64,000 nucleotides of DNA from an uncultured bacterium (GCA_964580785.1 CAZOKX010000003.1:2512-66511), one strand, 5' to 3'; shown: positions 5,686 through 58,526, counted from the stretch's first letter. Notes: a model not told the origin generated them from the sequence alone. A program made the numbers and translations.

Positions 5686-6237
5686 CTATCTAATTTGCTC
5701 TTCTTCCATATTGATAAGCAATTGAATGGCTTCGCAAATCATTTCTGATTTTTCTGTAGCTCTCCCCTGCAATATTCGATTCGCATAAAGATCATGAAAT
5801 GCCTTATGAATGTCCTCCCTTATATTGAAAGTCATCTTGCAGGTAGGAATTTTCTGATTTTTCGACTGTTTAGTCGAGAATATCGTTGGTTGTCTGGTTT
5901 GTGGGGCCTCTGGTTTAACATCTAGCTGGACTTCCATCTTTCCAGCAGGGTGGATTGTCGTCTGCCCAGATAGTTGGTGATTTGGGAAAATGGTTTGTTG
6001 GGGAGTCGGTTGACCGGATGGCTGGACCTCCGGGTGAATGGCCGTCTGGGTGACAGGACTTATGGGTTTCTGGATGTCCAGATGGCTGGCCTGTTTATTT
6101 TCTGGTTTACCATCTTTCTGGCTGTCTGGTTTGCCAACCATTTGATCTCCAATCATTTCGGAGAGACCGATTTTGCGCTTCTCATTGACTTCGAGTTGCT
6201 TTTTAGATTTTTCTTTGAGTTCGTTAATTCCTGACAT
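5686..6237 (-). CDS. Putative ribbon-helix-helix centromere-binding partner of ParA (ParG-like), with long Pro/Gln-rich linker
   Basis: 183 aa, overlaps the parA stop by 14 nt. C-terminal RHH-like KMTFNIREDIHKAFHDLYANRILQGRATEKSEMICEAIQLL. Low-complexity middle region. Confidence 0.5.
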   Translation of the reverse strand: MSGINELKEKSKKQLEVNEKRKIGLSEMIGDQMVGKPDSQKDGKPENKQASHLDIQKPISPVTQTAIHPEVQPSGQPTPQQTIFPNHQLSGQTTIHPAGKMEVQLDVKPEAPQTRQPTIFSTKQSKNQKIPTCKMTFNIREDIHKAFHDLYANRILQGRATEKSEMICEAIQLLINMEEEQIR

Positions 6238-7003
6238 TAGTTAGTCTCCCCATAACTTCTTTGACTAAATTTCCATATGCTTCTGCTCCCGAACACTTGG
6301 GATCATGGTCGAATACTGATTTGCTAGTTTCTTGGGCTTCGCTCAGTTTGACGTTTTCTGGGATCCTAGTTTCAAAAACTTTGTCGCCAAATAGCTCATT
6401 AATCGTTCCAAGTACTCGTTTTGATAAATTGCTCCGTGTCTTGAAAAAGGTGAAGAGGACCCCCATGATCTGAGCGTGATGATCTACCAAGCTTCCTGCT
6501 CTTTCGTTAGTACAATTGACAGACTCTAAAAAGGATTGGATGCCAGCTAAGCTGAAATAGTCTAATTGAACTGGTAAGATGATGTGCTCAGCTGTTAAAA
6601 AAGCGTTGGCTAGAAGCGTATTGAATGTAGGGGAGGTGTCAATGATGAGAAAATCATAGTCTGCATTCTTGAGTTTTTTTCTTAGAACAAACTCTTTAGC
6701 TGTAGTTTGTGCTAACTTAAATTCGGCCGCAGAAAGAGAATTGTCGGAGGGAATTATATGCAGATTTTCAATGTATGACTCTTGAACCACGTCTTTTATA
6801 TGGCAGTTGTCTTGGCATAAGAGCTCTGCGATTGTTTGTCGGTTTTCTGTTTTAATGCCGAGACCCAAGCTCGAATGGCCTTGGGGATCTAAATCGACCA
6901 AGAGCACTCGTTTGCCTGCACGAGCAAGCCCTGCGCTCAAGTTGATGGCAGTAGTGGATTTTCCTACGCCTCCTTTTTGATTCGAAATAGCTATCTTGTG
7001 CAT
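6224..7003 (-). CDS. parA: ParA/Soj-family partition ATPase
   Basis: 259 aa. Deviant Walker A NQKGGVGKSTT, then VLLVDLDPQGH and FLIIDTSP. Confidence 0.9.
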   Translation of the reverse strand: MHKIAISNQKGGVGKSTTAINLSAGLARAGKRVLLVDLDPQGHSSLGLGIKTENRQTIAELLCQDNCHIKDVVQESYIENLHIIPSDNSLSAAEFKLAQTTAKEFVLRKKLKNADYDFLIIDTSPTFNTLLANAFLTAEHIILPVQLDYFSLAGIQSFLESVNCTNERAGSLVDHHAQIMGVLFTFFKTRSNLSKRVLGTINELFGDKVFETRIPENVKLSEAQETSKSVFDHDPKCSGAEAYGNLVKEVMGRLTNVRN

Positions 7004-7156: not shown

Positions 7157-7354
7157 ATGGCGAAAAAAACCGTTAAAGAAAATTCGGAAAAATCGAAAAG
7201 AGCGCGCATTTCATTAGAATGTTCTCAAGAAATCAGAAAATTCATACGGGTTAGCGCTGCGAAAAAAGACACAAGCATGAATGACTATGTTGTATCGCTT
7301 GTATTGGAGAAAATGCAACAAGATAAAGAAATCGCTCATTCACCAAAATCATGA
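7157..7354 (+). CDS. Small ribbon-helix-helix (CopG/Arc/ParG-like) DNA-binding protein
   Basis: 65 aa, divergent from parA. RISLECSQEIRKFIRVSAAKKDTSMNDYVVSLVLEKM fits a beta-strand plus two helices (RHH pattern). Confidence 0.5.
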   Translation: MAKKTVKENSEKSKRARISLECSQEIRKFIRVSAAKKDTSMNDYVVSLVLEKMQQDKEIAHSPKS

Positions 7355-7669
7355 AGATTTCGGATACATGTCTTTAATCTTTTTAATCAGTTCTACCCAT
7401 ACTTGTCCATCAGGACCGATATCAATCCCTTTCGATGCTAGATAGGCAAGCGATTTATACACTAAATCTAGTTGATCTCCGAGAGGTGGGTAAAGAGCAC
7501 GCCTAAAATCAGCATAGTAAGCCCAATGATAAAGGCGTCCATCAGGTCCTAAAATCGCATCACATGTAGTTTCTGTGACATTCTCTGGAATGGGCTGGTC
7601 TTTTGGCCAGTTTCCACACCAGATGGGCATCCCGTGCCTGTAATAGCATTTGACGTTTCTATAAAACAT
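7349..7669 (-). CDS. Hypothetical protein at the distal end of the fibre cluster (possible fibre accessory/assembly factor)
   Basis: 106-aa ORF, last gene of the minus-strand virion block. Contains PPLGDQLDLVYKSL. No confident family. Confidence 0.4.
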   Translation of the reverse strand: MFYRNVKCYYRHGMPIWCGNWPKDQPIPENVTETTCDAILGPDGRLYHWAYYADFRRALYPPLGDQLDLVYKSLAYLASKGIDIGPDGQVWVELIKKIKDMYPKSS

Positions 7670-7682
7670 AAAAAGAAGGCAC

Positions 7683-8066
7683 CTAAACGTTGGCTATTAA
7701 AAATCTTGTTCCATAAGGAGTTAGTCGGCAATTATAGACAAATCCTCCTGAAGTGGTTGAGTTCACAATAATCATTCCAGATGAATCCAGGGTAATAGAG
7801 TTGAAGGTATAAGCTCCCGCAGTATTGTTAAAATTGCGAATAGTGGCAAGTTGATTCGCAAAGCCAGGACCCCCAAATCCTTCATGGGAGACGGTATACA
7901 TAAACCGTATATCTAAGTTAGGACCACCAAGTTGGATAAACATGAGAAATGCTTGAGTATTGTTTGCTGTTACCCCTGGTAGTTGTGAAATGTTTGTATT
8001 CCCATTTAATAAATTCCCAGAAAAGGATTGAGAATTGTTATTTACTGTATTCTGTGATAATCCCAT
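7683..8066 (-). CDS. Hypothetical fibre-cluster protein (Asn/Thr/Gly-rich)
   Basis: 127-aa ORF packed 30 bp downstream of the 976-aa fibre gene. Composition resembles the neighbouring fibre proteins. Confidence 0.45.
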   Translation of the reverse strand: MGLSQNTVNNNSQSFSGNLLNGNTNISQLPGVTANNTQAFLMFIQLGGPNLDIRFMYTVSHEGFGGPGFANQLATIRNFNNTAGAYTFNSITLDSSGMIIVNSTTSGGFVYNCRLTPYGTRFLIANV

Positions 8067-8096
8067 CTAAATTGTTATCCTAAAAAATTGTACTCT

Positions 8097-11027
8097 TCAT
8101 GCGGGGACTCCTACAAGCTCTGCTGTAAAGTCGGTAATATTTGTCCCTCCACCTACGCCTTTTACGGCTACGGTTTTTGTGCTGCCTGAAACTTGAATGC
8201 TGACATAGGCTTTATTGGGGACTGCATCAGGGCCAATCCCATTCATCATCCCATAGGTTTCTACAGTCACCATATTTGAAGTGTCTTTCGAGGCTGCAGG
8301 ATTGAAATAGTGCCCCAGATTTCTATTGGGTGTATGGATCGTTAACAGGCCGCTCGTATGGCCAGCTCCCACATTTCCGATAGTAACTTTGGAATGGAAT
8401 TTCCAAAAGCATGGGCTTGGTGTTGTCGCTGGAATTTGGTATTGTGCAGTGCCTGTATTCCAGCCGCTTTGGTTGTCGATGATGACCGTATCGAAAGGGA
8501 TCGTATAGTCTGTTCCGTCTCCAGTGACATTTGCGATGTCATTCGAATTATAGGCATTGAAGATGGCGTTTTTAGGGAACCAAACCTGCTGATTTTTATC
8601 GGCATAGACGCTTTGCGAACTAGAGTTGTCCGATTGGTACTGGTTATTGTAATTCACAGAATTCAGGTAAGTAACCGTGGCACCTGACCCTAAAGTCGGT
8701 GTTCCGCTTCCTGCTGTATTGGAGCTAGAAAAAAGAACCGTGGCATTATTCCCAAGGGTTAAGCCATTGGGAAAATTGCAATAGGAGTTGTAGATAAGAA
8801 AGTTAGAAGATGTTCCCGAGTTTATTCCGAAGGAAGTCAGCAGGGTAGAATCGTAGATTTGATAGGAATTACTTCCACCCGCCGAATCATCGATGAAATA
8901 GGTCATCGATTGGTTTGTGGTGCATTGGGTGATCCGAGCAGAAAGGTTGTTTTTTGCTCGGATACCATACGTGCAAGAATTCCCAAAATTGCAATTATAG
9001 AGGACTAAGTCTGTCGATGTCGTTGCTGCAGAGCTATCTATAAGCGTGCTGCTTTGAATACTGCAATTATTAATCACTATCCCAATGCCAGAAGTTGCAG
9101 CGTTGATGATAGAGGAGCTGTTATCGAACTGGCAGTTATCAAATTGGTAAAAATCTCCGTTTCCGCTGTGAGCGGTAATAGTGGCTCCAAGTGCGCAATT
9201 CACCATTTGGAAGAGCAAATATTTGTTAGAAATGCTGTCTATAGACGAAGAGCTAAACCTGCAGTCGTTGAAGTTAATTCTTATGCTCGCAGAATTGGTG
9301 ATCGAATAACTATTGATATAGCACCCAACAAACTGGAAACCGTCAGCTAAAGTCGCGGTCCCGCTGGTTATCTGGCAATTTGAGATCGATCCTACACCAG
9401 TTCCGGTAATACTGCCTGATATAATCGTATCGGGATTGATGAAGGCTCCAAGCCCGCTAAATTCGTGTGTCTGGTTTCCTGCTGATAATCCCATCAAGAA
9501 AATGATTGTAGATGCGGGAAAAGTTAAATTTTCGAAATAGTTTCCTGGTTTGATGTAAATATTAGCACTTGATAATCCATCTGTGACAATCTGGTCTATA
9601 GCAGCCTGAATAGTGGTAAATCCTGCATGGATGTCGCCCACTGGTCCTACGATATAAGGGGTAATAGACGTATATCCACTTCCGCCTCCTCCATGCCAAC
9701 TTCCATTGTAGAACCAGGGGATATCATTGGTGGCATCATAGACCATAGGTATAGCAGAGCCATAACTTGTTGGGGTCCCAGTTGGAGAACCGTTGCAGCT
9801 TGGGATATGTAAAAATCCGTCTGTGGCTGAGGTGGAAAGCTGGTCTGAGTTAGTGATAGTATTCCCGTTTCCAGAGAAAGAATCTATGTAGTGGACCTTG
9901 GCTCCAGTCCCTAAAGTAGGGGTGCCAAATCCTTGGAGATTGCAGTTATAGAGATAGACGTTGGAGTTATTTCCCAAATTGACGGCTTGGCTATTTGAAA
10001 CGGTGGAGTTTCTGACAAAATAAGAGTTTGATCCTGTCCCAACAGAGTCATCGATAAAATAAGTATTTCCATTGATTGTGCAGTTATTGATAGAAGCGCT
10101 TGCTTTATTAACTTTTAATAAAGCGGTTGATGTTGAATAAGCTTTACAAAAATTTAGCTCACAAGAGATCCCTGCTGTTGTGCTTGCCGTAGTGTCTATG
10201 AGTATTGGAGAGAGAATGTCACACCATTGGAATATGAAAGAAACGTTGCTACTTGCAGAAAGAGTGAATCCGCTGCTGATCGTACTCTTCTCGATGATTA
10301 ACTGATTGCCTACCCCTCCTATTGTAAAGCTTCCAGCAAGATAGCTATTTTGGAAACGCATATCCACCCATTTGGTTGAAGAAAAGAAGGTGCCTGTGTT
10401 GAGAAAACAGGTTTCAAATTCTAAACTTTTTCCATCGGCGGTTGTGGAAATATAAGTGCCGGTTGCTCCGAAGAATTGACAATTTTTAAATTTTAGGTTT
10501 CCTCCACTGCTAATGGCTGTGCTGCTTCCACTATAAGCAATACGGATTGATTCAAAAACCATGGTCCCGCTTGCAAGAGTACAAATTCCATTCCAAATGA
10601 CTGAAAGAGGAGGGAAATCATTACTAGAGCTTGATGCTCCAGCTCCTAATCCGATGAGGCGGATCCCAGCTTGGGAAGTCAGGTTTTCGATGTAAGTCCC
10701 TGGTTTTATATAAATATTGATAGGGGAACTATCGGAGGCCCCTGCGGCAATCGCGGCTGTAATGGCATCTTGGATTGTTGTGAAATCGGAATTAGTAGGT
10801 CCAACAATGTATGGACTTAAAGAGGTTCCTCCTCCTCCTGCCGCAGCAATTGTAATGCTCCCTTGACCATTGGTGATGGTTACGTTCGAACCAGCTATTA
10901 GAGTGGAGATCTTGGGATTTCCTGTGCTATCGCCAATGATGAGCTGGCCATCGGTTAAGATCTGGGTGCTCCCGTTATCGAAAGAGATATTATCTGCCTT
11001 TATAAGGCCGTTATTAAAACCAACCAT
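8097..11027 (-). CDS. Large tail fibre/tailspike: two tandem pectin-lyase-type beta-helix modules plus a C1q/TNF-like C-terminal tip
   Basis: 976 aa. The module start occurs twice: SPYIVGPTNSDFTTIQDAITAA..NIYIKPGTYIENL and TPYIVGPVGDIHAGFTTIQAAIDQ..NIYIKPGNYFENL. The N-terminus MVGFNNG is shared with ORF 11094-11576. C-terminal NVTGDGTDYTIPFD...TDFTAELVG. Confidence 0.7.
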   Translation of the reverse strand: MVGFNNGLIKADNISFDNGSTQILTDGQLIIGDSTGNPKISTLIAGSNVTITNGQGSITIAAAGGGGTSLSPYIVGPTNSDFTTIQDAITAAIAAGASDSSPINIYIKPGTYIENLTSQAGIRLIGLGAGASSSSNDFPPLSVIWNGICTLASGTMVFESIRIAYSGSSTAISSGGNLKFKNCQFFGATGTYISTTADGKSLEFETCFLNTGTFFSSTKWVDMRFQNSYLAGSFTIGGVGNQLIIEKSTISSGFTLSASSNVSFIFQWCDILSPILIDTTASTTAGISCELNFCKAYSTSTALLKVNKASASINNCTINGNTYFIDDSVGTGSNSYFVRNSTVSNSQAVNLGNNSNVYLYNCNLQGFGTPTLGTGAKVHYIDSFSGNGNTITNSDQLSTSATDGFLHIPSCNGSPTGTPTSYGSAIPMVYDATNDIPWFYNGSWHGGGGSGYTSITPYIVGPVGDIHAGFTTIQAAIDQIVTDGLSSANIYIKPGNYFENLTFPASTIIFLMGLSAGNQTHEFSGLGAFINPDTIISGSITGTGVGSISNCQITSGTATLADGFQFVGCYINSYSITNSASIRINFNDCRFSSSSIDSISNKYLLFQMVNCALGATITAHSGNGDFYQFDNCQFDNSSSIINAATSGIGIVINNCSIQSSTLIDSSAATTSTDLVLYNCNFGNSCTYGIRAKNNLSARITQCTTNQSMTYFIDDSAGGSNSYQIYDSTLLTSFGINSGTSSNFLIYNSYCNFPNGLTLGNNATVLFSSSNTAGSGTPTLGSGATVTYLNSVNYNNQYQSDNSSSQSVYADKNQQVWFPKNAIFNAYNSNDIANVTGDGTDYTIPFDTVIIDNQSGWNTGTAQYQIPATTPSPCFWKFHSKVTIGNVGAGHTSGLLTIHTPNRNLGHYFNPAASKDTSNMVTVETYGMMNGIGPDAVPNKAYVSIQVSGSTKTVAVKGVGGGTNITDFTAELVGVPA

Positions 11028-11093
11028 GATGTTTCTGCCTTTTATGATTTATATTCTGTAATAGTCTTGGGTAATTGGGTTGAAGATCTGAGC

Positions 11094-11576
11094 TTAGCCA
11101 ATAAAGAATCCCCCAAAATCACACCATTGATCTCCGGTGGCTTTCGTTCCAACAACCTTCGTTCCCCCGAGGACTTGGACTTGCAGGGTGAATGTGCTAG
11201 ATGCTCCTATTCCGTTTATGTAACCGGAAACTTCCAGAGTAAGCTCGTTTCCTGCGGTTCTACTATTAGCAGCGTTGATGTCAAAGTAAAGGTTCCTGTT
11301 GGCATTGGTGATCGACAGGACCGCAGTTGTGTGGGAGGAAGTTATCCCTGTAAGAGTAACCTTTCCTTGGAGGAACCAAATGCCCGTTGGAATGTTAGAT
11401 GGAACTGTATAGATCCCTGTTGCTGGGTTGTATCCATTGGAGGGATCGAATATTTCAATGTCGCAGATCACGTTTGCTGTTGTTCCATCGCCAGTCAAGT
11501 TCGATTGCGAAGTGAGTTGATAGGCAAAGAAAGAGAAATTGTTTGATGACAAAAATCCATTATTGAAACCGACCAT
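11094..11576 (-). CDS. Short tail-fibre protein with C1q/TNF-like jelly-roll domain
   Basis: 160 aa. The N-terminus MVGFNNGF is paralogous to that of the 976-aa fibre. SNLTGDGTTANVICDIEIFDPSNGYNPATGIYTVP ... DFGGFFIG fits the C1q-type pattern. Confidence 0.55.
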   Translation of the reverse strand: MVGFNNGFLSSNNFSFFAYQLTSQSNLTGDGTTANVICDIEIFDPSNGYNPATGIYTVPSNIPTGIWFLQGKVTLTGITSSHTTAVLSITNANRNLYFDINAANSRTAGNELTLEVSGYINGIGASSTFTLQVQVLGGTKVVGTKATGDQWCDFGGFFIG

Positions 11577-11588
11577 ATTCTTTACCTT

Positions 11589-12086
11589 TTATGATTCATA
11601 TTCTGTAATCGTCAGGGTACAGACCCCTGCGCCTCCATATATGCGCGTATTGCTGCCGCCACCCATGAGATCGAAGGCATTGGCATCTGGACCTATTCTA
11701 ATTTTAAATGTTGTTGATGAGGTTGTTCCTGCTGACATGTAGTAGGTCAATGGAGTAACAACTTTTAAAAACTGAGAGCCAGGACTTGTTGCCATACAGG
11801 CAATAGCGTTCGGGTTAGAGTCCTGGAAAAGAGCACAACAGACTGTTTGTCCTTGCGTTCCTCCTCCCCACACATTTGCTTGAATAACCAGAATATTTGA
11901 TGCACTTGTTGGAGTGATAGAAGCAAACATGATCTGTGTCCCTTCTGTATTTTGAGGGACTGTGTCATCCTGAGGAATAAGGGCTGTCAGTCTCTGAAAG
12001 GTGGTTGTGCTCGTTCTTACTTGTTGGACTAGAGTGCCCTTTAACCCAAAAATTTGGACGTAGCCATTATTTGTTCCTGTGCTCAT
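11589..12086 (-). CDS. Hypothetical fibre-cluster protein
   Basis: 165-aa ORF overlapping the upstream gene's stop by 4 nt. Ser/Thr/Gly-rich. No family recognised. Confidence 0.45.
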   Translation of the reverse strand: MSTGTNNGYVQIFGLKGTLVQQVRTSTTTFQRLTALIPQDDTVPQNTEGTQIMFASITPTSASNILVIQANVWGGGTQGQTVCCALFQDSNPNAIACMATSPGSQFLKVVTPLTYYMSAGTTSSTTFKIRIGPDANAFDLMGGGSNTRIYGGAGVCTLTITEYES

Positions 12087-13624
12087 GAGTTTGTTAAAAC
12101 CTTTTGATAGCTATAGGTGCAGACCCAGTTATAAGTCGTTGAGGCAACTCCTGCTATTCTGATCCTTACCGTTTGAGTTGAGGTGTCTACATCACATGTA
12201 AAGCTGGCGGAGGAGCTGCTCTCTATGTTGACAATGGGACTTCCAATTAGGGCGACGTTTCCTCCAGAAGCACGCCTTGCACAGATCAAGAAATTACCTC
12301 CTATCATGTTTGTATGGTCACTCTGAGCAGCTGTAATGCTCCCTGAGAGGGTGATTGATTCAGTTTGATTGACGACGACAGATGCTAAAGTCTGCGTAGT
12401 ACTGTCTGTGGTCTGAAGGCCAGCTTGTCCCGTATATTGTTGTGATCCTGTGAATCCGGATCCGATTAGTTGCCTTCTTTCTAAAAATAAGCCGGAAGAT
12501 GGATTGCATTGACAGCCAGCGGTGATGACTTTCCCACCAGTAATTATATCGGAGTATCCGTTGATTAAGTTAGGCCCCCAGAAAGAGGTGTTGAAGGCAT
12601 TGAAAGAGACATTCGGATTGTTGATAATAGCGATTTTATTAGCACTTGATATGCCGATTGAAGAGTTTGTGTAATCAATATATGAACTATTTGTTGTAGA
12701 AGGCCCAATTGAATGGAAGGCTCCTATTGATACGGCCCCTGTTTGAATATGCAAAGTATTGTAGGCTACAAATTGGTAATAGACTGAGCTAGCAGAGGCG
12801 TCAAAGCAGGAGAGAAGAACAGCGCTCGAAACTTGCATATGAAATGTAGAACTTGCAGGGATTACAGCAGCTTGGATTTGTGATGCTTGGACAAAGCAAT
12901 TTGAGATTATAAGCTTGAGCAAACCCCCAGAGCCAGTATAGCTAAATAAGGTGGTGTTAGCTGTATTGTCGGACAAGACACATTCTTCAAAACAAACCCA
13001 CATGGTTGCAACTGCAGGCGTATAAGAAAAAATAGAATTTCCGGCTTGAGTGGTTTGAATGAAGCACCCTTTAAAAAGAATGCCTGTAAGAGAGGCACAA
13101 GCCAGATAAATGGCAGAGCCAGTTGTAGGCTGAATCCACATATTGAAAATTTTGCACGATTGACCGCCGCTTGGAGAAAAAGAAATACTCCCAGTTAATT
13201 GTACACTTGGAAGACTTGAGATGTTTGGTACTCCATATTGGTAATCTTGAGTAAAATTGATAGGATCGAATCCAATAAGAGAAATCCCATCATATACGGT
13301 AAGGTCTTCGACGTAAGTTCCAGATTTGATATAGATGTTTTTCGGAGCTGAATGAGAAGCTCCATCAGCAACAGCCTGATCGATGGCAGCTTGAATTGTT
13401 GTAAAATCACTTCCTGTTGCCCCTACAATATAGGGAGATAGGGTAGTGCCTCCTCCGGAAACAGTAGCCCATTTGGCACCAGTTGGCATCGTGTTATCCA
13501 GTGTTAAAACCAGACCATTTGCTCCTGCTGAAAGCACAGATGGATTAAGGCCACCGCCTTGTCCTAGAAGAAGATCTCCTTTGTTGAAAAGAGCAGGAGT
13601 GTTGATTGTATTTTGTGTTCCCAT
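12083..13624 (-). CDS. Tail fibre/tailspike with pectin-lyase-type beta-helix
   Basis: The track ORF runs to 13648; I prefer the start MGTQNT at 13624, just after the upstream stop. NKGDLLLGQGGGLNPSVLSAGANGLVLTLD fibre motif, then SPYIVGATGSDFTTIQAAIDQAVADG..NIYIKSGTYVEDL. Confidence 0.65.
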   Translation of the reverse strand: MGTQNTINTPALFNKGDLLLGQGGGLNPSVLSAGANGLVLTLDNTMPTGAKWATVSGGGTTLSPYIVGATGSDFTTIQAAIDQAVADGASHSAPKNIYIKSGTYVEDLTVYDGISLIGFDPINFTQDYQYGVPNISSLPSVQLTGSISFSPSGGQSCKIFNMWIQPTTGSAIYLACASLTGILFKGCFIQTTQAGNSIFSYTPAVATMWVCFEECVLSDNTANTTLFSYTGSGGLLKLIISNCFVQASQIQAAVIPASSTFHMQVSSAVLLSCFDASASSVYYQFVAYNTLHIQTGAVSIGAFHSIGPSTTNSSYIDYTNSSIGISSANKIAIINNPNVSFNAFNTSFWGPNLINGYSDIITGGKVITAGCQCNPSSGLFLERRQLIGSGFTGSQQYTGQAGLQTTDSTTQTLASVVVNQTESITLSGSITAAQSDHTNMIGGNFLICARRASGGNVALIGSPIVNIESSSSASFTCDVDTSTQTVRIRIAGVASTTYNWVCTYSYQKVLTNS

Positions 13625-13635
13625 TTTTTTACCTT

Positions 13636-14163
13636 TTATTGAGACCAAGTTCCGAGAATTACACAGCTCATCGTGATGGAAGTTCCTGTTGCGGCTGTAT
13701 TTACGTTTAAATAACCAGATGTATTAGCGGGAATTGCATTCAACACGCCGCTGAGTTGAACCACTTGGTAATTATTGGCCGCTGTTAACCCGCCGAAAGA
13801 GGTGTTAGCTAAGATGTTGTTGTAGCTAGAGCCATTCGTTCCAATAGAAATACTCGCGCCGGAGGAGATCGAAGTTGCAAAGAGAACGCTTATAATGATC
13901 TGTGTTGGGAAAAAACGAAATCCGCTGGATGGAGTAGTAAAAAAGATGGTATTTCCTGTGTTTTTTGCATTGAATGTATTCAGGTAATATCCTGTCATCC
14001 CATACATGTACTTGAATCCGCTTGCTGCGGTAGAGTCACAGGCAAGTACTTGTCCATTTAAAGATCCCCAATTAAGCATGACGGGCCTAGCCCCGTTTTG
14101 TCCTACGAGTATTTGTCCTTTGGCAGTGTAGTCTGGGTTATTGATAGAGTTTTTTATAGCCAT
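13636..14163 (-). CDS. Short tail-fibre protein
   Basis: The track ORF runs to 14247; I prefer the start MAIKNS at 14163. Carries the fibre motif AKGQILVGQNGARPVMLNWGSLNGQVLACD also seen in ORFs 12083 and 16191. Confidence 0.5.
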   Translation of the reverse strand: MAIKNSINNPDYTAKGQILVGQNGARPVMLNWGSLNGQVLACDSTAASGFKYMYGMTGYYLNTFNAKNTGNTIFFTTPSSGFRFFPTQIIISVLFATSISSGASISIGTNGSSYNNILANTSFGGLTAANNYQVVQLSGVLNAIPANTSGYLNVNTAATGTSITMSCVILGTWSQ

Positions 14164-14168
14164 AATTT

Positions 14169-14669
14169 TTAATCCACCAAGTATCCATAGATAAATGAAA
14201 TGCCAGCCGCTTGAAGTGAAATAACTTTTGCTCCTCCGCCGACCCAAATAGTGAAATAAGCAGTATCGTTGGCATTCATACGAGCAAGCGTGGATGTAGC
14301 GATTTGAAGGGTTTGGGAGCTTGAAGAAAGAGCAAAAGCCCCCAATTCTGCAAGACGGTATGTCTTAGCAGTTGTTTCGCATTTCAAGACGTATGCGTTC
14401 ATCCCTGACGTAAGACCTTGAGTATTTATAGAGGCACCAAAGACATAATTTCCTTGAACCGGAGCAGTAAAAATACCTGTTAGAGGGTTATAACTAGAGC
14501 TTTGGTCCATCACGACGTTGTCACAGACAATGGTGTATACAGTTCCGTCTCCCGTGACGTTGCCTGTGCTAGAATTTAAGAGAGCTTGAAAAGAGCACTG
14601 CAACGGGCGTGTCACTTGATGATTGGCGACTATTATCGGTGAATTCGTGCTATTATTATTTTGGACCAT
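14169..14669 (-). CDS. Short tail-fibre protein with C1q/TNF-like jelly-roll domain
   Basis: 166 aa. GNVTGDGTVYTIVCDNVVMDQSSSYNPLTGIFTAPVQGNYVF ... ISFIYGYLVD matches the classic C1q-domain pattern (F-x-AP-x-x-G-x-Y-x-F, with a hydrophobic C-terminal strand). Confidence 0.55.
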   Translation of the reverse strand: MVQNNNSTNSPIIVANHQVTRPLQCSFQALLNSSTGNVTGDGTVYTIVCDNVVMDQSSSYNPLTGIFTAPVQGNYVFGASINTQGLTSGMNAYVLKCETTAKTYRLAELGAFALSSSSQTLQIATSTLARMNANDTAYFTIWVGGGAKVISLQAAGISFIYGYLVD

Positions 14670-14693
14670 TCATTCCCTTTCAGTTCAAATTGG

Positions 14694-16079
14694 TTAATTG
14701 ACGGTTATATTTCCTATAGCTCCAAAAGCTACCCACTGACTTGAGTTCACTGAGACTAGAGTTACGCAATCGTATTGATCGACAAATTCTAGGAAGCCCG
14801 TCACCCCTGTTGTTGTGGCAGAGGAGCCAAGATGGATGATCTGCCCCGCATTTTGAGCAATTTTCCATCCTCCTGCACCAAAACCAACAATCTGAAGCAT
14901 GTCCCCAAGCTGTTGAGGGTCCGGAAGTGTCAGAGTCACGAGAGAAACGTTGTTTGCGACAATGTAAGCATTGCCTGCTACCATGGTTGTATCTGTAGTA
15001 GCAGCATTCCAAGTTAGACTTCCTGACGAGGCATTGATAGTGATAGAGCCATTCCCATTAACGATGCTGACATTGCTACCTGCCGTGAGAGTGGCTATTT
15101 TGGGCACCCCTGTGCTATCACCAATGATAAGTTGACCGTCCCCAATGATTTTTGTAGCGCCCCTGTCAAAGCTGAGGTTCTGTAAAAAGGCTGTGCCGCT
15201 TTCGATTTCTGTCGTATAGATCTTCGTAATTGTCCCTGCAACTGCAAATCCTTCAACGTAGGAGACGCTCGTAAATTCAACGCTGCCTGTTCCTGCTATG
15301 ACGGGATTAGCGGTAGAGTCAATGACAACATTATTGAGAACAACCGGATTAGAAGAGGTCGTGGTGATCGCTGCTGTAGCTCCACTACTAATTCGAGAAT
15401 TAGAAATGGTTTGGGTAGAACTATCAGAGAAAGTTAATCCCTGCGTAAAGGTAGAGCTATCAATAGAAAGATTTGCTGTTCCTTGAATTGTAAGAGGGCA
15501 AGCTATACCCGCTCCAAATAGGACTGTTGTACCGCTGAGCACCATACTATTCGCAGTTCCAGCTCCTAAGCCTGCATCAAAAACGAAAAGAGAAGCTCCT
15601 CCAGTATTGTTAACGCCCCCATCACTCCCAGCTCCTGGGTTAATGTCAAAAAGCTCAAAAATTCCTGTCCAATTAGGTAAATCGAATGTGTAACCGTTTG
15701 TTACGTTCAATAAGGCATCTATGATGACGAGATGTGATTGACCAGCAGCGCTACTATCAAAAATTGCGGTAGGGCTGGAGAGCTTTGTATTCCTAAAAAT
15801 GAAGGTCGTGTTGGCAGTTGGAGGGATATGAGTTCCGACGATCTCAACTTGTCCTTCATCTCCTAAGCCGGTTGCTCCAACTACTTCAACAAAATTTGTG
15901 ATTGCTGATAGATCAAGATCCTCAGTATACGTTCCTTGTTGAAGAAATACGCTTCCTCCACCAGCTGCTGTTGCGGCATTCACTGCAGATTGGATCGTTC
16001 TATACGATCCATTGCCAGGTGTCGTACTGACAATATATCGCGAAATTCCGAAGTTGTTTGTACTGTTATTAGTGCCCAT
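14694..16079 (-). CDS. Tail fibre/tailspike with beta-helix and a conserved C-terminal GxGAGGW module
   Basis: 461 aa. ISRYIVSTTPGNGSYRTIQSAVNAATAAGGGSVFLQQGTYTEDL. Internal GDGQLIIGDSTGVPKIATLTAGSNVSIVNGNGSITI is near-identical to the N-terminal part of the 976-aa fibre. The C-terminus LVTLTLP..IVGFGAGGWKIAQNAGQ is paralogous to ORFs 16191 and 16884. Confidence 0.65.
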   Translation of the reverse strand: MGTNNSTNNFGISRYIVSTTPGNGSYRTIQSAVNAATAAGGGSVFLQQGTYTEDLDLSAITNFVEVVGATGLGDEGQVEIVGTHIPPTANTTFIFRNTKLSSPTAIFDSSAAGQSHLVIIDALLNVTNGYTFDLPNWTGIFELFDINPGAGSDGGVNNTGGASLFVFDAGLGAGTANSMVLSGTTVLFGAGIACPLTIQGTANLSIDSSTFTQGLTFSDSSTQTISNSRISSGATAAITTTSSNPVVLNNVVIDSTANPVIAGTGSVEFTSVSYVEGFAVAGTITKIYTTEIESGTAFLQNLSFDRGATKIIGDGQLIIGDSTGVPKIATLTAGSNVSIVNGNGSITINASSGSLTWNAATTDTTMVAGNAYIVANNVSLVTLTLPDPQQLGDMLQIVGFGAGGWKIAQNAGQIIHLGSSATTTGVTGFLEFVDQYDCVTLVSVNSSQWVAFGAIGNITVN

Positions 16080-16190
16080 AGTTATTAATCCCTTGCCTCT
16101 GGAGGTAATTTGGCTCCAGGGATGTTGAATCTCCCTGGGCCAAAATCTTCAAAATTATTACTAATCCCTTGTGCTGTCCTTTGCATCTGA

Positions 16191-16859
16191 TTAAACAACG
16201 GTTAAGTTGCCGACTGCACTGAGTACTCTCCATGTGGTGTCTGCAACCACGCAGAGGCACTCTAAAGCATCGCCTGAGTCAGTTGAGGCTAAGCTTCCTC
16301 CGACGCCAGCAGTCGTAGCTGTATTGCCAAATTTGACCGTTTGGGAAGCGTTCTGAGCCAATAGCCATCCGCCTGCTCCGTTACCAGCGATTCTGAAGGT
16401 TGTGCCTTGAGCTGCTGTCGTTGGGAGGGTTAAGGTGACCAAGGCAGCGTTGTCGGCGATATAACCGGTGTTGACTGCGATTGTTTGGGAAGTTCCTGTA
16501 ACATCTACCCATGTTGTCACGCCGCCGCTACCCCCGCTTGCAGCCGCCCATTTAACGCCTGATGTTTGAGTGGAATCTGCAGTTAAGACAAAAGTGTCTG
16601 TTCCAATAGTTAGGGGGGTGAAAGTCCCTACGCCAGTACCGACTAAGATCACGCCTTTGGCGGTATAGTCCGCAAAGCCGATCAAAGTATCTGCTGCTCT
16701 ATTAGGGAATGTGTAAACCCCTGAGCCAGCAAATTGATTTGTAAGGGTATAATCCCCGCTGCCGTTATAGGTAACGGTTCTTTTGGTGGTACCTCCACCA
16801 ATGCTAAATCCAACCGACAGGTTAGAAATGTCTAAGTTTACTGATGAATTACGAGCCAT
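16191..16859 (-). CDS. Tail-fibre protein with conserved C-terminal GxGAGGW module
   Basis: 222 aa. [29 protein letters not shown] fibre motif. C-terminal [34 protein letters not shown]. Confidence 0.55.
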
Positions 16860-16883
16860 ATGTCCTTGCCTCTTTTTTTGTTG

Positions 16884-17351
16884 TTAAACGAAATTTACGC
16901 GCCCTTCTGGGCCATTTGATACCACCCAAATTGTGTTGTCTTGGATACAGAGCAATCCAATGCTGTCGGTACCAAAATTTGATTCCAGAAGACCTTTAAC
17001 GCCGCTTGTAGTGGCTTTAGTGCCATGCCTTATCTGCTGACCCGCTCCTTGGAGAATTCGCCATCCTGCATCTGAATAACCAACAACCCGTTGACGAGTT
17101 CCCGCTGGAGCAATAGGAGGAAGGGTTAAGTTGATTTTCTTGGAGCCTACGACGTAGTAATAGATGTTGCTTTTCATGATCAGGTCGGAGATGGCTGGAA
17201 ACCAAACTTCGAGTGAAGCGCGAGCTTTTAGCTGAATTGCACTAAGATTTCTTGAAAACTCGTCATATTGACGGAGGATAAAAGAGGCAAGAGCATCCAC
17301 TCTTTTTGTGGTGGGCAGTTGATTGATATTACGAAGAACTAGATGGCTCAT
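16884..17351 (-). CDS. Fibre-cluster protein with the third copy of the C-terminal module
   Basis: The track ORF runs to 17414; I prefer the start MSHLVL at 17351. C-terminal INLTLPPIAPAGTRQRVVGYSDAGWRILQGAGQ. Confidence 0.5.
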   Translation of the reverse strand: MSHLVLRNINQLPTTKRVDALASFILRQYDEFSRNLSAIQLKARASLEVWFPAISDLIMKSNIYYYVVGSKKINLTLPPIAPAGTRQRVVGYSDAGWRILQGAGQQIRHGTKATTSGVKGLLESNFGTDSIGLLCIQDNTIWVVSNGPEGRVNFV

Positions 17352-17691
17352 GGCGTATTTCTCCCTTTTTTTGTTTTTTGGGAATCTGCTTAGGGGCAGC
17401 TTGCTGGAGAACATACTCCTTGCTTTGCTGGATCAATTGCCCTAAGAGTCCTTCCAAAGTTTCAAGACGATTTCTCATTTGCTCAACGGCCTGTTGCAAT
17501 GCAAACATGCGGTTTACCTCAACCTGCTGCTGGATCAGCATCCTTTTCGGTGCGCAGTCGCTGATGACTTTTGGCTGTCCAGTCCCTCCTTCTTGCCACC
17601 ACGATTCCATGAAATTGGGGCATTCTCGCTCGCTTGCGCATAGCTTGCTCTTGACGAAAGGGCAGTTTTCTTTACATGAGGTACAATCCAT
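17329..17691 (-). CDS. Cys-rich, coiled-coil hypothetical protein inside the fibre cluster
   Basis: 120 aa. N-terminal MDCTSCKENCPFVKSKLCASERECPNF...DCAP (8 Cys in about 46 aa), followed by a Gln/Leu-rich helix and a Lys-rich tail. Confidence 0.45.
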   Translation of the reverse strand: MDCTSCKENCPFVKSKLCASERECPNFMESWWQEGGTGQPKVISDCAPKRMLIQQQVEVNRMFALQQAVEQMRNRLETLEGLLGQLIQQSKEYVLQQAAPKQIPKKQKKGEIRHEPSSSS

Positions 17692-17718
17692 TGGGTTCTC
17701 CTTTAGTTGGTTAATTTT

Positions 17719-18321
17719 TTAAGGTTGTTTCTGACATAAAACTCCTGTTGCTGCTAACGGTCTCCATGTGGAACCGTGATTGTGTGGAGCATTTCCTCCA
17801 GTAGATGATGTTGTTATCGTGCCACCGTTATCTGATCTCCAGGGTTTGGTATCAGCGGATCCTCTTTGGTTTTTACCCACGATAAAAGGGGAAAGTGTGT
17901 GTGCGTGGGAGGGCATTTGATCAATAGTCAAAGTATGATCTGCTGTTTGCCATGTACCTTGTGGCAAGGAACCTCCGACGGTATAGGTAGACCCTCCCTT
18001 AACACTTAAAAGGCAGTCTCCGACGGGCATGATTACCCACCCGCTTGGGGCAACATCTTGATAAAACCAAAGCTGGGTGCCTGCGACAAAACTGATTTGA
18101 TCGAAGCGAATTTGATAATTTGTCGATCCTCGGCCTATAACCATTAAGTCATTGTTGATCGCCGTGCTAGGGAGAGGATCAAAGAGGGAGATATCAAAGT
18201 TTCTTATCTGAGCAATTGTGGCTTTCTTATCCGTAAATCCTTGATGAACAATAGTAAGGTCGTTGGTTGGATCTATTGTTCCCACTGGATCGAGGTCTGT
18301 AATCAGAACAGGTGTACTCAT
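17719..18321 (-). CDS. Tail-fibre protein with phage tail-collar-like domain
   Basis: The track ORF runs to 18366; I prefer the start MSTPVL at 18321. HTLTIDQMPSHAHTL and GGNAPHNH resemble the tail-collar/MdpB pattern. Confidence 0.55.
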   Translation of the reverse strand: MSTPVLITDLDPVGTIDPTNDLTIVHQGFTDKKATIAQIRNFDISLFDPLPSTAINNDLMVIGRGSTNYQIRFDQISFVAGTQLWFYQDVAPSGWVIMPVGDCLLSVKGGSTYTVGGSLPQGTWQTADHTLTIDQMPSHAHTLSPFIVGKNQRGSADTKPWRSDNGGTITTSSTGGNAPHNHGSTWRPLAATGVLCQKQP

Positions 18322-18331
18322 GGTTTCTCCT

Positions 18332-18799
18332 TTAAGACGGAATAATTTTTGATTGTCCCCAGACAATGATGGTTGCTGGATCCGCCGCCCCTGTAATAGG
18401 GACAGACGTACCAGAAATCACTCCCAGTGCCAGAGTTGCGCTTGCTACCGTTGTCAAGGTCACCGTTCCTCCAACATTTGCTCCGATGGCATAGAGATAG
18501 TGAGTTGGGCTCGCTGTATCGACGGCGAACAAAACGCAAAGAGAGCCACTAATCGGGAAAATATTGACGCCAGATCCGTCCGTGACAATCGCTTGTTCTT
18601 CTTGCTGCTTGAACCAATTCAGCCAACGCCAGGTATAGCGCGCCAGCCAGTTGAACCAGTTTCGAGGGGGGTATTCAAGCCTGGCCCAACCCTCTAATTT
18701 TTTCTCGGGAGGCGGCTCAAGAACGTTGTTTTGCCCTGATATTGGGTCCACAACGTCATTTTCGGCCCATTCGGGTAAGATTGTGGGTTTTGATACCAT
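18332..18799 (-). CDS. Tail-fibre proximal (baseplate-attachment) protein
   Basis: 155 aa. The N-terminus PEWAENDVVDPISGQNNVLEPPPEKKLEGWARLEYPPRNWFNW is a pattern common at the N-termini of phage fibres. Confidence 0.5.
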   Translation of the reverse strand: MVSKPTILPEWAENDVVDPISGQNNVLEPPPEKKLEGWARLEYPPRNWFNWLARYTWRWLNWFKQQEEQAIVTDGSGVNIFPISGSLCVLFAVDTASPTHYLYAIGANVGGTVTLTTVASATLALGVISGTSVPITGAADPATIIVWGQSKIIPS

Positions 18800-18808: not shown

Positions 18809-19564
18809 TTAAGGTGGTGGCGGCTCTGAGCCGTTAAACATGATTACTTCTGCCAGTTGCCCAGCTCCTGTCGTATCAATAGGTGTTCCAAACTCTGCAA
18901 AGCAGCCACCGAATGTGGGATTGACGACATTGCCCGCATTGACTGCTAAAAGATCGACAACCTGCACTTGAAGGTTTCTAAAATCGAAGGGGGTAGATTC
19001 AAAAGGAGCGACATCGAGAAGCTCAATGATTGGATCTCCGCTAAACACAAAAGGAAGGGGTACTCCGTAAGTTGCGGTGATAGGTGTGTATTGAACGGCT
19101 GCAGGGCTCACTGATTGGATCGCAGAGACTAATTGCTCGGGTGGAACAGAGAATGTGATCCCGTCCGTATCCATTTGGAAGGCTGCGGGGTAATATTCGT
19201 GGTAGCGGATCTTGGTTGCTTTGGTCAAAAACTTGAGAACGGCGATCACTTCCTCGGGAGTCCCATTGGATTTATTGATGAAGATCTGAAATTTCAGTTT
19301 TTCTCTATAATCATCGTCCGATTCGTCCGGAAGTCGACTAAGCCCTAAGATTTGCCCAAGGCCGTCAAGCTGAACGCCGACCGATGTTTCGATAGAGCGC
19401 TGAGATTTCAAGGTTTGATCGACATCGTCAATTTCTTGAAATTGAGTGACAAACGCCTGAATCAACCGTTGGAAACGACTGTATTCTCCATCTAAGAGGC
19501 TCTGCTGAAATTGACCAGCTAGTAGGGCGATCGCTCTTTGGACATGATTCGGTATTAAGGCCAT
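18809..19564 (-). CDS. Baseplate wedge / fibre-attachment protein (P2 gpI / DUF2612-like)
   Basis: 251 aa, immediately downstream of the baseplate J gene. GVQLDGLGQILGLSRLPDESDDDYREKLKFQIFINKSNGTPEEV fits the wedge-protein pattern. Confidence 0.55.
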   Translation of the reverse strand: MALIPNHVQRAIALLAGQFQQSLLDGEYSRFQRLIQAFVTQFQEIDDVDQTLKSQRSIETSVGVQLDGLGQILGLSRLPDESDDDYREKLKFQIFINKSNGTPEEVIAVLKFLTKATKIRYHEYYPAAFQMDTDGITFSVPPEQLVSAIQSVSPAAVQYTPITATYGVPLPFVFSGDPIIELLDVAPFESTPFDFRNLQVQVVDLLAVNAGNVVNPTFGGCFAEFGTPIDTTGAGQLAEVIMFNGSEPPPP

Positions 19565-31006: not shown

Positions 31007-31349
31007 TTTCTTCTGCCTCTGCTTGATGAGAAATTTTATGAAGCTGTTTTTTAGCTGCGTCTACGACCTTTTCTCGGCCATCTTCCTCGATAATTCGATT
31101 TAGATAAGCGTGATCATAAATTTGAGGGATGAGCTTCATCATCTCCTTAACCGACTTCTTACCATCCGCTTCTTTGTCTGGAGATTCGGGAATAATCACG
31201 ATGATTCCTTCTTCGACCCTATGTTGAAATAAAGGATGAAGGAGGAGGGCTTTGAGTTCGCCCTCCGGAATCTCATTGATCCCTGGCATCAGGCGGCTGG
31301 TAAAGTTACAATAGTAGACGTTCTTACCGTTGTACTTGACTAGAGCCAT
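30966..31349 (-). CDS. Hypothetical head-module protein
   Basis: 127-aa ORF starting at the capsid gene stop. Confidence 0.4.
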   Translation of the reverse strand: MALVKYNGKNVYYCNFTSRLMPGINEIPEGELKALLLHPLFQHRVEEGIIVIIPESPDKEADGKKSVKEMMKLIPQIYDHAYLNRIIEEDGREKVVDAAKKQLHKISHQAEAEENEHFGSNTKSNDH

Positions 31350-39561: not shown

Positions 39562-39641
39562 GTCTTTGTATCTTTAAGAGCTTTTTTGTTTCTTTTCAGC
39601 TTCATTTTAAGCATTAAAATTTATAAGCTCTCTAACATTTG

Positions 39642-41474: not shown

Positions 41475-41551
41475 TAAAGAAAATATCAGCCAACGAAATT
41501 TACTATCTTTAGTAAGTTTTATAGGAGACTCCGAGATGGTTGTTAGTCTAT

Positions 41552-41881: not shown

Positions 41882-41900
41882 TTTAAATCCTATGAGCTTT

Positions 41901-46320: not shown

Positions 46321-46365
46321 ATCCTAGAGGATAACCTGTATGATAGGATTAAAAACGGAGCAACT

Positions 46366-47799: not shown

Positions 47800-47800
47800 C

Positions 47801-58519: not shown

Positions 58520-58526
58520 AAACTCT

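Follow-up and report, generated by a model that had tools for sequence, protein, structure and literature searches.

A modular multi-fiber gene block on a probable contractile-tailed phage-plasmid of environmental Chlamydiota, with domains resembling the plasmid protein Pgp3

Several myophages, with receptor-binding apparatuses that are multivalent and branched, carry many receptor-binding genes beside their baseplate genes, among them the E. coli phage CBA120 (TSP1-4), G7C (gp63.1/gp66), the Klebsiella phages phiK64-1 and RaK2, and phi92. Their tailspike bodies are beta-helices, N-terminal parts that are conserved are joined to distal parts that can be exchanged, and TSP4 has, like T4 gp9, a domain of the XD1 fold. 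Here, we describe a gene block with the same placement, the same type of body and the same combination of conserved and exchangeable parts, and most likely with XD1-type domains as well, in a 64,000-nt stretch of DNA from an uncultured bacterium (GCA_964580785.1, CAZOKX010000003.1:2512-66511), the whole of which was analyzed and is called the window below. The block is probably the host-recognition module of a contractile-tailed phage-plasmid of environmental Chlamydiota, ~69.5 kb in size.

To our knowledge, the only chlamydial phages known so far are small Microviridae. A search of the literature on tailed phages and phage-plasmids of chlamydiae returned nothing beyond the "phage group" on plasmids described by Köstlbacher et al. 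in 2021, who list phage-derived families (terminase, tail proteins) and do not describe a fiber cluster (PMC7846284). This group and the Criblamydia sequanensis megaplasmid (PMC4208316) have the same backbone, ParA, helicase and arrangement of metal-resistance cargo as the window element, and the chlamydial plasmid core and "phage group" genes of that study agree with the plasmid genes of the window. On the virion side, the element shares with the myocyanophage Pam3 a simple baseplate of the Pam3/E217 type, with matches to the Pam3 gp18 plug, hub and J; Pam3 itself has a single tail fiber, gp24, with a TNF-like tip (PMC9608196). A further point of comparison is Pgp3 of the Chlamydia plasmid, which is secreted into the host cytosol (PMC6370636) and whose C-terminal domain was noted earlier to resemble the receptor-binding head of a lactococcal phage in fold (PMC4742702).

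The block comprises 14 minus-strand ORFs, from 7349..7669 through 18332..18799, all intact and separated by gaps of 6-111 nt or joined by short overlaps (Table 1). A preliminary description of the same sequence had put it at about 14 ORFs in 11.4 kb, and its coordinates coincide exactly with the ORF boundaries. The block lies directly downstream of the baseplate wedge genes (J, DUF2612), which is the usual position of fiber genes in myophages, and the presence of several receptor-binding genes next to this wedge supports the large modular receptor-binding cluster proposed earlier. As annotated with Pfam and PHROGs, the minus strand of the window encodes a complete contractile-tail virion module, in which the sheath, plug, hub, spike, gp25-like, J and I-like genes directly precede the block on the same strand. 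This virion set (portal, capsid, sheath, baseplate, TerL) occurs together with partition and replication genes of chlamydial type, the gene content of a phage-plasmid. In comparison with the 7.5-kb plasmid of C. trachomatis (pCTA, NC_007430; L016), the integrase matches Pgp8/7 (4e-85), ParA matches Pgp5 (2e-26) and the helicase matches Pgp1 (3e-23). ORFs 5686 and 1629 occupy positions comparable to those of pgp6 and pgp2; phmmer gave no match of ORF 5686 to Pgp6 or of ORF 1629 to Pgp2 at E up to 10.

Table 1. Features of the fiber block and of the element that carries it (window coordinates; residues refer to the ORF named)
Feature	Coordinates (nt)	Strand	Size or residues	Description
ORF 18332	18332..18799	-	155 aa	First gene after the wedge; conserved proximal fiber protein
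ORF 17719	17719..18321	-	200 aa from ATG	Conserved proximal tail protein; His-x-His in C-terminal part; PHROG 5795 'tail protein', 5e-9
ORF 17329	17329..17691	-	120 aa	Small Cys-rich protein; 67-93% identity in all relatives
ORF 16884	16884..17414	-	176 aa	LTLP (XD1-like) module behind a non-fiber-like N-terminus
ORF 16191	16191..16859	-	222 aa	Asn-rich start, KG motif (56-121), C-terminal XD1-like LTLP module (111-222)
ORF 14694	14694..16079	-	461 aa	Beta-helix, Pgp3-N-like motif, XD1-like C-terminal beta-sandwich
ORF 14694 beta-helix	15210-16055		~9-290	
ORF 14694 Pgp3-N-like motif	15021-15182		300-353	
ORF 14694 XD1-like beta-sandwich	14697-15035		349-461	
ORF 14169	14169..14669	-	166 aa	Stand-alone C1q-domain protein; PHROG 15750
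ORF 13636	13636..14163	-	175 aa from ATG	Asn-rich start, N-terminal KG motif (KG HMM 1e-31), ~100-aa C-terminal stretch
ORF 12083	12083..13624	-	513 aa from ATG	Asn-rich start, KG motif, beta-helix, ~120-aa C-terminal domain
ORF 11589	11589..12086	-	165 aa	Putative Pgp3 C-terminal (TNF-like) domain homologue
ORF 11094	11094..11576	-	160 aa	MVGFNNG start fused to putative C1q-type tip
ORF 8097	8097..11027	-	976 aa	MVGFNNG, Pgp3-N-like motif, helix 1, linker, helix 2, putative C1q-type tip
ORF 8097 Pgp3-N-like motif	10830-10991		13-66	
ORF 8097 beta-helix 1	9873-10832		66-385	
ORF 8097 linker	9677-9870		~390-450	
ORF 8097 beta-helix 2	8658-9677		451-790	
ORF 8097 putative C1q-type tip	8109-8606		808-973	
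ORF 7683	7683..8066	-	127 aa	Asn-rich start; 75-77% identity in L002 and L003
ORF 7349	7349..7669	-	106 aa	Last gene of the block; PHROG 2504 (unknown function), 3e-10; 70-72% identity in L002 and L003
Direct repeat, copy 1	11038..11066			Spacer upstream of ORF 8097; relic of an ORF 11589-like 3' end and ribosome-binding site
Direct repeat, copy 2	11585..11613		29 nt	93% identical; true ORF 11589 3' end and ribosome-binding site upstream of ORF 11094
DUF2612/P2-I-like wedge gene	18809-19564	-		Pfam, PHROGs; adjoins the fiber block
Baseplate_J gene	19584-21569	-		Pfam, PHROGs; wedge flank of the fiber block
Sheath	27177-29057	-		36-38% identity to Pseudomonas myophage sheaths
Major capsid protein	31349-32278	-		Virion module, alongside DUF2213 protein
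Portal	35350-36807	-		Virion module
Large terminase (TerL)	52815-54164			
Integrase	51322-52311			Chlamydia Pgp8 match, 4e-85
ParA	6224-7003			Directly downstream of the fiber block
Primase-helicase	3283-5628			Downstream of the fiber block, beside ParA

Relatives of the element were sought with the wedge protein in species-representative genomes, and the plasmid collection was searched separately. The former yielded 11 loci, on contigs mostly of 70-98 kb (full range 34-350 kb), eight of them in metagenome-assembled genomes (MAGs) with a Chlamydiota label (Parachlamydiaceae, Rhabdochlamydiaceae, Parachlamydiales, Chlamydiae), two labelled uncultured bacterium and one labelled Verrucomicrobia. 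The wedge protein in this last MAG (L006, JAFEGE010000043.1) is 93% identical to that of the window; the label is probably a binning error for a mobile element, MAG labels being weak evidence of the host. The plasmid collection contained one relative, the circular 89.5-kb plasmid of the cultured Criblamydia sequanensis CRIB-18, which has 72% nucleotide identity over the baseplate region and in which the circular extrachromosomal form is seen, the window element being known as a contig. Because the matches to Pgp7/8, Pgp5 and Pgp1, the Criblamydia plasmid and the MAGs from several chlamydial families agree, a chlamydial host is supported, in line with the obligate intracellular host assumed in the preliminary description.

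Four pectin-lyase-type modules with a common entry motif had been proposed, two in tandem in ORF 8097, one in ORF 12083 and a diverged one in ORF 14694, and an alignment of all four indeed retains YIV...TIQ.A...G.Y.E.L. Paralogy was assessed by all-against-all BLASTP with composition correction and with Hidden Markov Models (HMMs) built from the modules. In BLASTP, ORF 12083 aligns with module 1 of ORF 8097 at 53% identity over 110 aa (1.6e-17), with module 2 at 37% over 162 aa (5e-12) and with ORF 14694 at 37% over 49 aa (0.002), and the HMMs score the window copies at 1e-21 to 1e-75. The AlphaFold2 (AF2) model of ORF 8097, built with 14 homologues, consists of two successive beta-helices with a predicted local distance difference test score (pLDDT) of ~90 for residues 70-380 and ~75 for residues 460-790, and that of ORF 14694 (mean pLDDT 88) of a beta-helix and, C-terminal to it, a compact beta-domain (pLDDT 92-96). 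When these models were compared with the PDB using Foldseek, ORF 8097 matched phage tailspikes and fibers (Agrobacterium phage 7-7-1, Acinetobacter phages Fri1 and P1, and CBA120 TSP1, 3 and 4) as well as pectin methylesterases and the PL6 alginate lyases with their two beta-helix domains, at probability up to 1.0; the matches of ORF 14694 were the TSP4 N-terminal region, tailspikes and pectin methylesterases. The beta-helix folds called for by the preliminary description are thus recovered in the predicted structures of both proteins, and the beta-helix of ORF 12083 is a putative assignment by homology. Searching the PDB by sequence with ORFs 8097, 12083, 14694 and 17719 gave nothing useful. 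The linker between the two helices of ORF 8097 (DGFLHIPSCNGSPTGTPTSYG...YDATNDIPWFYNGSW) is the most conserved stretch among the homologues and contains many G, P, D, Y and W residues that hardly vary; its fold was modelled poorly.

The entry motif is of the pectinesterase/YbhC type. NCBIfam PRK10531 matches ORF 8097 (3e-11) and ORF 12083 (9e-6), both far below the whole-protein cut-off, and PF01095 matches the homologues P0045 and P0002. The pectinesterase profile matches are confined to ~positions 3-133, and the CE8 catalytic motifs QDT, DFIFG and GRxW occur in none of the four modules, by which an active pectinesterase was ruled out. Since only the N-terminal part of the profile is matched and the catalytic motifs are absent, the modules are classed not as esterases but as beta-helix bodies of the pectin-lyase-like superfamily, as they had been in the preliminary description. 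With the CE8 pectin methylesterases and E. coli YbhC (PF01095, PRK10531; PDB 1GQ8, 3GRH), they share the right-handed beta-helix and the entry motif Y.V...TIQ.A...I.I..G.Y.E.; they differ in matching the first ~100 profile positions only, in addition to the missing motifs.

Two further module families recur at the C-termini. For the three proposed C1q-type tips, in ORFs 14169 and 11094 and at the end of ORF 8097, the paralogy holds (ORF 11094 and residues 823-959 of ORF 8097, 36% over 137 aa, 8e-21; ORFs 11094 and 14169, 28% over 134 aa, 7e-12; ORF 14169 and the ORF 8097 tip, 28% over 165 aa, 1.7e-9; all BLASTP), and ORF 14169 matches Pfam C1q with 32 bits (cut-off 23.7). A family match of their own was not obtained for the other two: neither ORF 11094 nor the ORF 8097 tip has a direct Pfam match, and the profile of the tip subfamily has no match in the PDB, so that both are putative C1q domains, transitively through ORF 14169. 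The three C-terminal LTLP modules were correctly recognized as paralogs; ORF 14694 aligns in BLASTP with ORF 16191 at 34% over 207 aa (5e-20) and with ORF 16884 at 37% over 87 aa (5e-13), ORFs 16191 and 16884 align at 37% over 81 aa (7.5e-14), and the module HMM detects the copies at 1e-35 to 3e-46. The top Foldseek matches of the ORF 14694 model are ~120-column alignments to the TSP4 N-terminal region of CBA120 with probability 1.0; as Foldseek gave no query coordinates, we infer that they fall on the C-terminal domain. The LTLP profile, compared with the PDB, has its top match in TSP4 residues 77-126, a weak one (E 0.76). The XD1 domain of TSP4 (residues 80-178) is a nine-stranded beta-sandwich that recurs in T4 gp9 and in the domains of CpaA and StcE that bind glycans (PMC8825819), and, judging from the model, the LTLP module most likely has this fold. 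In ORF 16884 the XD1 HMM covers residues 64-175 (1e-35), there is no Asn-rich start (see below), and an alternative start gives MSHLVL. In a tblastn search of the phage and plasmid collections with ORF 14694, only the XD1 part of one Microcoleus phage matched.

The proteins are also linked through their N-termini. Two of the adaptor motifs named in the preliminary description are borne out: the MVGFNNG starts of ORFs 8097 and 11094 have 10 of 16 residues in common and lie in a junction of ~90 nt that is duplicated in the DNA, and the KG motif is shared by ORFs 12083, 13636 and 16191 at 35-47% identity (BLASTP E 5e-6, 1e-4 and 1e-3). The extended junction (~10975-11100 and ~11524-11649) consists of the end of ORF 11589, a ribosome-binding site and the MVGFNNG codons, and looks like the footprint of a cassette insertion by recombination at conserved 5' junctions. 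Apart from its 29-nt repeat, DNA self-comparison of the block revealed only an 86-nt repeat at 71% identity. With almost no repeats at the DNA level, the paralogy is therefore old, and recent DNA-level duplication was ruled out as its source. Invertible cassettes of the Mu/P1 type were excluded as well, because the block contains no inverted repeats of at least 25 nt; all its genes are on one strand.

More widespread than these motifs is an Asn-rich start, defined as at least two Asn in residues 2-10 and following approximately the pattern M-x-x-N-(N/S/T)-x-(I/V)-N (for example MGTNNSTNNF, MVQNNNSTNS, MAIKNSINNP and MGTQNTINTP). It is present in nine of the 10 proteins from ORF 16191 to ORF 7683 (ORFs 16191, 14694, 14169, 13636, 12083, 11589, 11094, 8097 and 7683), compared with two of the 54 other ORFs of the window (Fisher p = 2e-8), and in 48 of 65 cassette ORFs of the relatives L003-L015, including families unrelated to those of the window. 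Short conserved N-terminal docking peptides occur in branched Klebsiella phage systems. As a sequence pattern, the Asn-rich peptide supports a putative common docking element better than the motifs listed in the preliminary description; alternatively, it could be a mere mark of recombination junctions.

Comparison of the relatives separates a constant from a variable part of the block. J, DUF2612 and ORFs 18332, 17719, 17329 and 16191 are conserved in all relatives, with 75-94% amino acid identity in the close ones. ORF 18332, whose residues 3-64 weakly resemble tail-fiber N-termini (PHROG tail-fiber families 7389 and 4465), is 90-94% identical in close relatives and 62-63% in Criblamydia-type elements, and ORF 17719 is 76-88% identical in close relatives. 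ORF 17329 has no family match in Pfam, PHROG or NCBIfam and is perhaps an assembly factor. The last conserved gene is ORF 16191, with 64-92% identity in every relative including the Criblamydia plasmid; ORF 16884 has no counterpart at the same position in L003-L015. Between ORF 16191 and ParA everything differs, and the distal content is distinct in every element; the cassette swapping for which a comparison of strains had been proposed is thus extensive. L003 lacks ORFs 16884, 14694, 11589 and 11094. In L008 there are two genes resembling ORF 12083, a stand-alone tip resembling ORF 11094 (72% identical to the window protein), a short protein combining KG and XD1 modules, also seen in L005 and L007, and a triplet of 240-250-aa paralogs, of which L005 has two triplets; L004 and L009 have a fiber of 693 or 697 aa. 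The triplets, found in L004, L005, L007, L008 and L010 (e.g., L005 14186-18662), carry the motif YTCPAGK, are absent from the window, and are another, as yet unclassified, fiber cassette family. ORF 14169 is 65-74% identical in relatives.

The largest fiber protein is itself a mosaic. Its 981-aa counterpart in L002 and L003 starts with a KG module, whereas ORF 8097 has MVGFNNG and the Pgp3-N-like motif instead; the first helix is 68-71% identical and the second half 31-42%, and the tip of the 981-aa counterpart shares 64% identity with the stand-alone ORF 11094 of the window and only 42% with the tip of ORF 8097. ORF 7683 follows the 976-aa gene in all relatives that have this gene, and ORF 7349 is, by its position, a candidate fiber assembly factor. 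Beyond these loci, hundreds of metagenomic proteins contain the modules, which are fused there to tailspike beta-helices on phage-like contigs of 30-50 kb and stand in at least 20 module orders among the matches listed; ORF 14694 alone has 408 homologs. The modules are frequent in uncultured freshwater Caudovirales and nearly lacking in cultured phages, and a megablast search of the block against deposited phages gave no match. The distal content of the Criblamydia plasmid amounts to one 99-aa gene and two Gly-rich genes of ~290 aa. In Criblamydia-type elements (L015, NZ_LK031773, record 64734-66494; L011; L013), such ~290-aa proteins with GGGGGGSG runs replace the window cassettes, and they are reminiscent of the glycine-rich adhesin domains in Pam3 gp24 and T4-type gp38. 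Block length is ~4.5 kb in Criblamydia, at least 9.8 kb in L008 and 11.4 kb in the window. Its size is therefore a family trait with the window at the upper end, and the preliminary remark that such a block is unexpected for an intracellular host is a judgement about a feature that is not peculiar to this element.

Both globular domains of Pgp3 have putative counterparts in the block. The motif GDGQLIIG...GSITI, previously listed among the adaptors, is common to ORFs 14694 and 8097 as claimed (residues 300-353 and 12-65; 70% over 54 aa, BLASTP 3e-17). It is not an N-terminal adaptor as such: in ~80 of 120 ORF 14694 homologs among the matches listed, it directly precedes a C-terminal XD1-like or other distal domain, often in 2-3 copies, and it is therefore probably a shaft or neck element, perhaps trimeric, rather than a docking site. 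The Pfam domain of the Pgp3 N-terminus, PF20858, scores above its cut-off in homologs P0045 and P0110, exactly on this motif, and the window copies have no Pfam match, PF20858 included. Searched against the whole PDB, the motif profile has its best match in C. trachomatis Pgp3 residues 24-69 (E 0.0014), with an hhalign probability of 79% for Pgp3-N and a pairwise BLASTP identity of 37% over 57 columns (E 0.1). ORF 11589, unclassified in the preliminary description, appears from profile comparisons to be a fourth TNF-like jelly-roll tip and a homolog of the Pgp3 C-terminal domain. It matches PF05475 at E 0.0016 (18.7 bits, below the cut-off of 25), many of its 673 homologs have PF05475 on record, the family profile has Pgp3 as its sole match in the PDB (E 1.1e-4 over 112 residues), and hhalign aligns it to Pgp3 residues 144-258 (E 1.3e-4); tblastn against the phage and plasmid collections gave no match. 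HMMs made from phage-side sequences only match both Pgp3 domains, residues 24-69 at 2e-6 and 146-257 at 1e-6, in a small database. The window has the two domains in separate proteins rather than in one chain, and in the metagenomic proteins P0061 and P0079 a beta-helix leads into the Pgp3-N motif and a contiguous Pgp3-C domain, without a coiled coil. P0061 is encoded on a phage-like 36-kb contig and, on a second contig, in the neighborhood of a protein that ends in a K1-lyase domain.

No description of a sequence-level link between both Pgp3 domains and fiber modules of a chlamydial phage-plasmid was found in the literature. We tentatively raise the possibility, which we hold to be somewhat short of likely, that Pgp3 is a domesticated distal tail-fiber unit, a trimeric shaft motif with a TNF-like tip, derived from a lineage of chlamydial tailed phage-plasmids; the E-values behind it are modest, and its direction of descent is put forward as a hypothesis. 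If true, the 7.5-kb Chlamydia plasmid would be a reduced relative of phage-plasmids and not only a plasmid with acquired phage genes, and some fibers may bind eukaryotic (amoebal) structures, helping the particle to reach a bacterium inside another cell. The link would also give a testable origin to a major Chlamydia virulence factor that is immunodominant and a vaccine antigen.

From the observed folds, paralogy, position, turnover, selection and host affiliation, we infer that the block probably specifies a multivalent receptor-binding apparatus in which trimeric distal proteins would sit on or beside a conserved proximal fiber and be renewed by cassette recombination. The conserved proximal set (ORFs 18332, 17719, 17329 and 16191) follows the wedge and is itself followed by a hypervariable array of predicted receptor-binding proteins, drawn from at least six module families: the Asn-rich peptide with or without KG, and the Pgp3-N-like, beta-helix, C1q, Pgp3-C (TNF-like) and XD1-like modules. 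Every protein would trimerize and be attached by its short conserved N-terminus to the conserved proximal fiber or the baseplate, and several different distal binding domains would be displayed on the virion at once, as in phi92, CBA120 and phiK64-1, which would allow adsorption to the differing surfaces of several chlamydial lineages. Cassettes would be gained, lost and swapped by recombination at the conserved 5' junctions and module boundaries. Weighing against this reading, virion membership and particle formation are predicted here from the genes; the ORF 8097 tip was modelled with low confidence (pLDDT 30-60) and has no direct family match; the C-terminal XD1 assignment leans on a weak profile alignment and on Foldseek matches for which the aligned residues of ORF 14694 were not reported; and no fold is assigned to four parts, namely ORFs 7683 and 7349 and the C-terminal stretches of ORFs 13636 and 12083, which showed no link above 20% probability to the XD1, Pgp3-C and C1q profiles in hhalign. 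Pfam searches with isolated segments gave no meaningful match for ORF 7683, for these two C-terminal stretches, for the tips or for either of the Pgp3-N-like motifs. Branching domains of the XD2/XD3 type were not detected, an XD1-like match being the only one found, but their absence is unproven, as the domains without an assigned fold were outside the modelled set. We also know of no capsule in chlamydiae, which makes the target of beta-helix tailspikes unclear.

The differences in gene content among relatives, and the fact that Criblamydia gets by with four distal genes, could also be expected of a cassette reservoir, in which just one or two fibers, probably the proximal set and one distal protein, would be built into the virion and the remaining genes would be a recombination store, or duplicates being lost, that serve as a sequential arsenal. 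The duplicated junction and the short ORF 11094, an N-terminus plus a tip, resemble products of recombination or deletion, and ORF 16884 is an isolated module without an Asn-rich start that no relative has. We nevertheless consider this unlikely. The ORFs are all intact, closely packed and co-oriented like one late operon (a promoter and terminator scan gave counts no different from those in shuffled sequence), no inverted repeats or invertase for cassette switching were found, and L008 retains ORF 11094 as a gene of its own. Orthologous pairs have dN of 0.04-0.2 (0.46 for the mosaic ORF 8097 pair), far below dS; the computable dN/dS ratios are 0.02-0.07, with ~0.07 for the stand-alone tip ORF 11094, values that are qualitative only because dS is saturated, a further point against the reading that we prefer. 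The genes of the block appear to be under purifying selection, which argues against decaying duplicates.

The Pgp3 resemblance raises the question of whether the chlamydial host instead secretes some of the small Pgp3-like and C1q-like proteins, or carries them on its surface, to act on the eukaryotic cell as Pgp3 does. Folds of the C1q and TNF kind are characteristic of signaling proteins in eukaryotes, both Pgp3 domains have homologs in the block, the block abuts the ParA and helicase genes that match Pgp5 and Pgp1, and Pgp3 itself reaches the host cytosol by secretion (PMC6370636). This explanation seems improbable to us, considering that the same modules are found in hundreds of metagenomic proteins on phage-like contigs fused to tailspike beta-helices, that TNF-like tips are established in the related myophage Pam3 (PMC9608196), and that the N-terminal signature of the large fiber proteins is on these genes too. 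Finally, the proteins are biased toward S, T, N and G, and the E-values of the KG motif are modest (1e-3 to 1e-4), as would be seen if the motifs reflected low-complexity similarity without common ancestry. The alignments and models refute this, leaving it next to no probability: main pairs reach 1e-9 to 1e-21 in composition-corrected BLASTP, on which, with the HMMs (1e-21 to 1e-75), the paralogy that the preliminary description had exposed to proper alignment stands; the fold models are confident, and orthologs are present in at least 12 independent assemblies.

As a multivalent apparatus, the cluster would be a large, fast-recombining receptor-binding repertoire, and it is relevant to the question of how viruses or transducing particles locate an obligate intracellular host, and to the movement of plasmids and resistance cargo from one chlamydial family to another. 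It also offers candidate binding modules for genetic tools in a group that has few, and widespread fiber modules can now be named as Pgp3-N-like, Pgp3-C-like and XD1-like. Outside the block, a copper-resistance island (37375-45361, with 46201-52311 beside it) lies between the portal and large terminase genes and contains two P-type ATPases, an outer-membrane efflux protein and a multicopper oxidase, adjoined by the Pgp8-type integrase. The Criblamydia relative has arsenite-resistance cargo in its place, and these phage-plasmids therefore seem to carry metal-resistance cargo. Further products encoded in the window beyond the phage module, at 56509-62106, are an SPFH/Band-7 protein, a TPR protein and, at 61486-62106, a WapI-like immunity protein that hints at a polymorphic-toxin immunity gene on the element.

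Among the known systems, Pgp3 (PDB 6GJT, 4JDM, 4JDN, 4JDO; PF20858, PF05475) aligns in both globular domains, at residues 24-69 with the GDGQLIIG motif and at residues 146-257 with the ORF 11589 family, and its own N-terminus, MGNSGFYLYN, contains Asn; its plasmid shares with the window element the Pgp7/8-type integrase, Pgp5-type ParA and Pgp1-type helicase. It differs in that the two Pgp3-like parts of the window are in different proteins with no triple coiled coil between them and score below Pfam thresholds, and in being a secreted virulence factor of a 7.5-kb plasmid without virion genes. The Criblamydia megaplasmid differs in its much smaller distal block of different content. Compared with Pam3, which has one fiber and the chaperone gp25, the window has 14 genes, at least four jelly-roll tips, in part putative, and four beta-helices, and it has no glycine-rich domain, Gly-rich ~290-aa proteins being found in Criblamydia-type relatives. 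Unlike in CBA120, G7C, phiK64-1 and phi92, no XD2 or XD3 (T4 gp10-like) domains were detected in the window, the XD1-like domain is C-terminal and not an internal spacer, the tips are C1q/TNF jelly-rolls, the host is an obligate intracellular chlamydia, and there is no sequence similarity to those phages. By analogy, the likeness to phi92, CBA120, G7C and phiK64-1 would be a functional one and not that of a CBA120-type branched complex as defined by XD2/XD3. The modular multi-fiber cluster is a system of a known kind in an unusual host, and its most novel aspect is the putative link to Pgp3.

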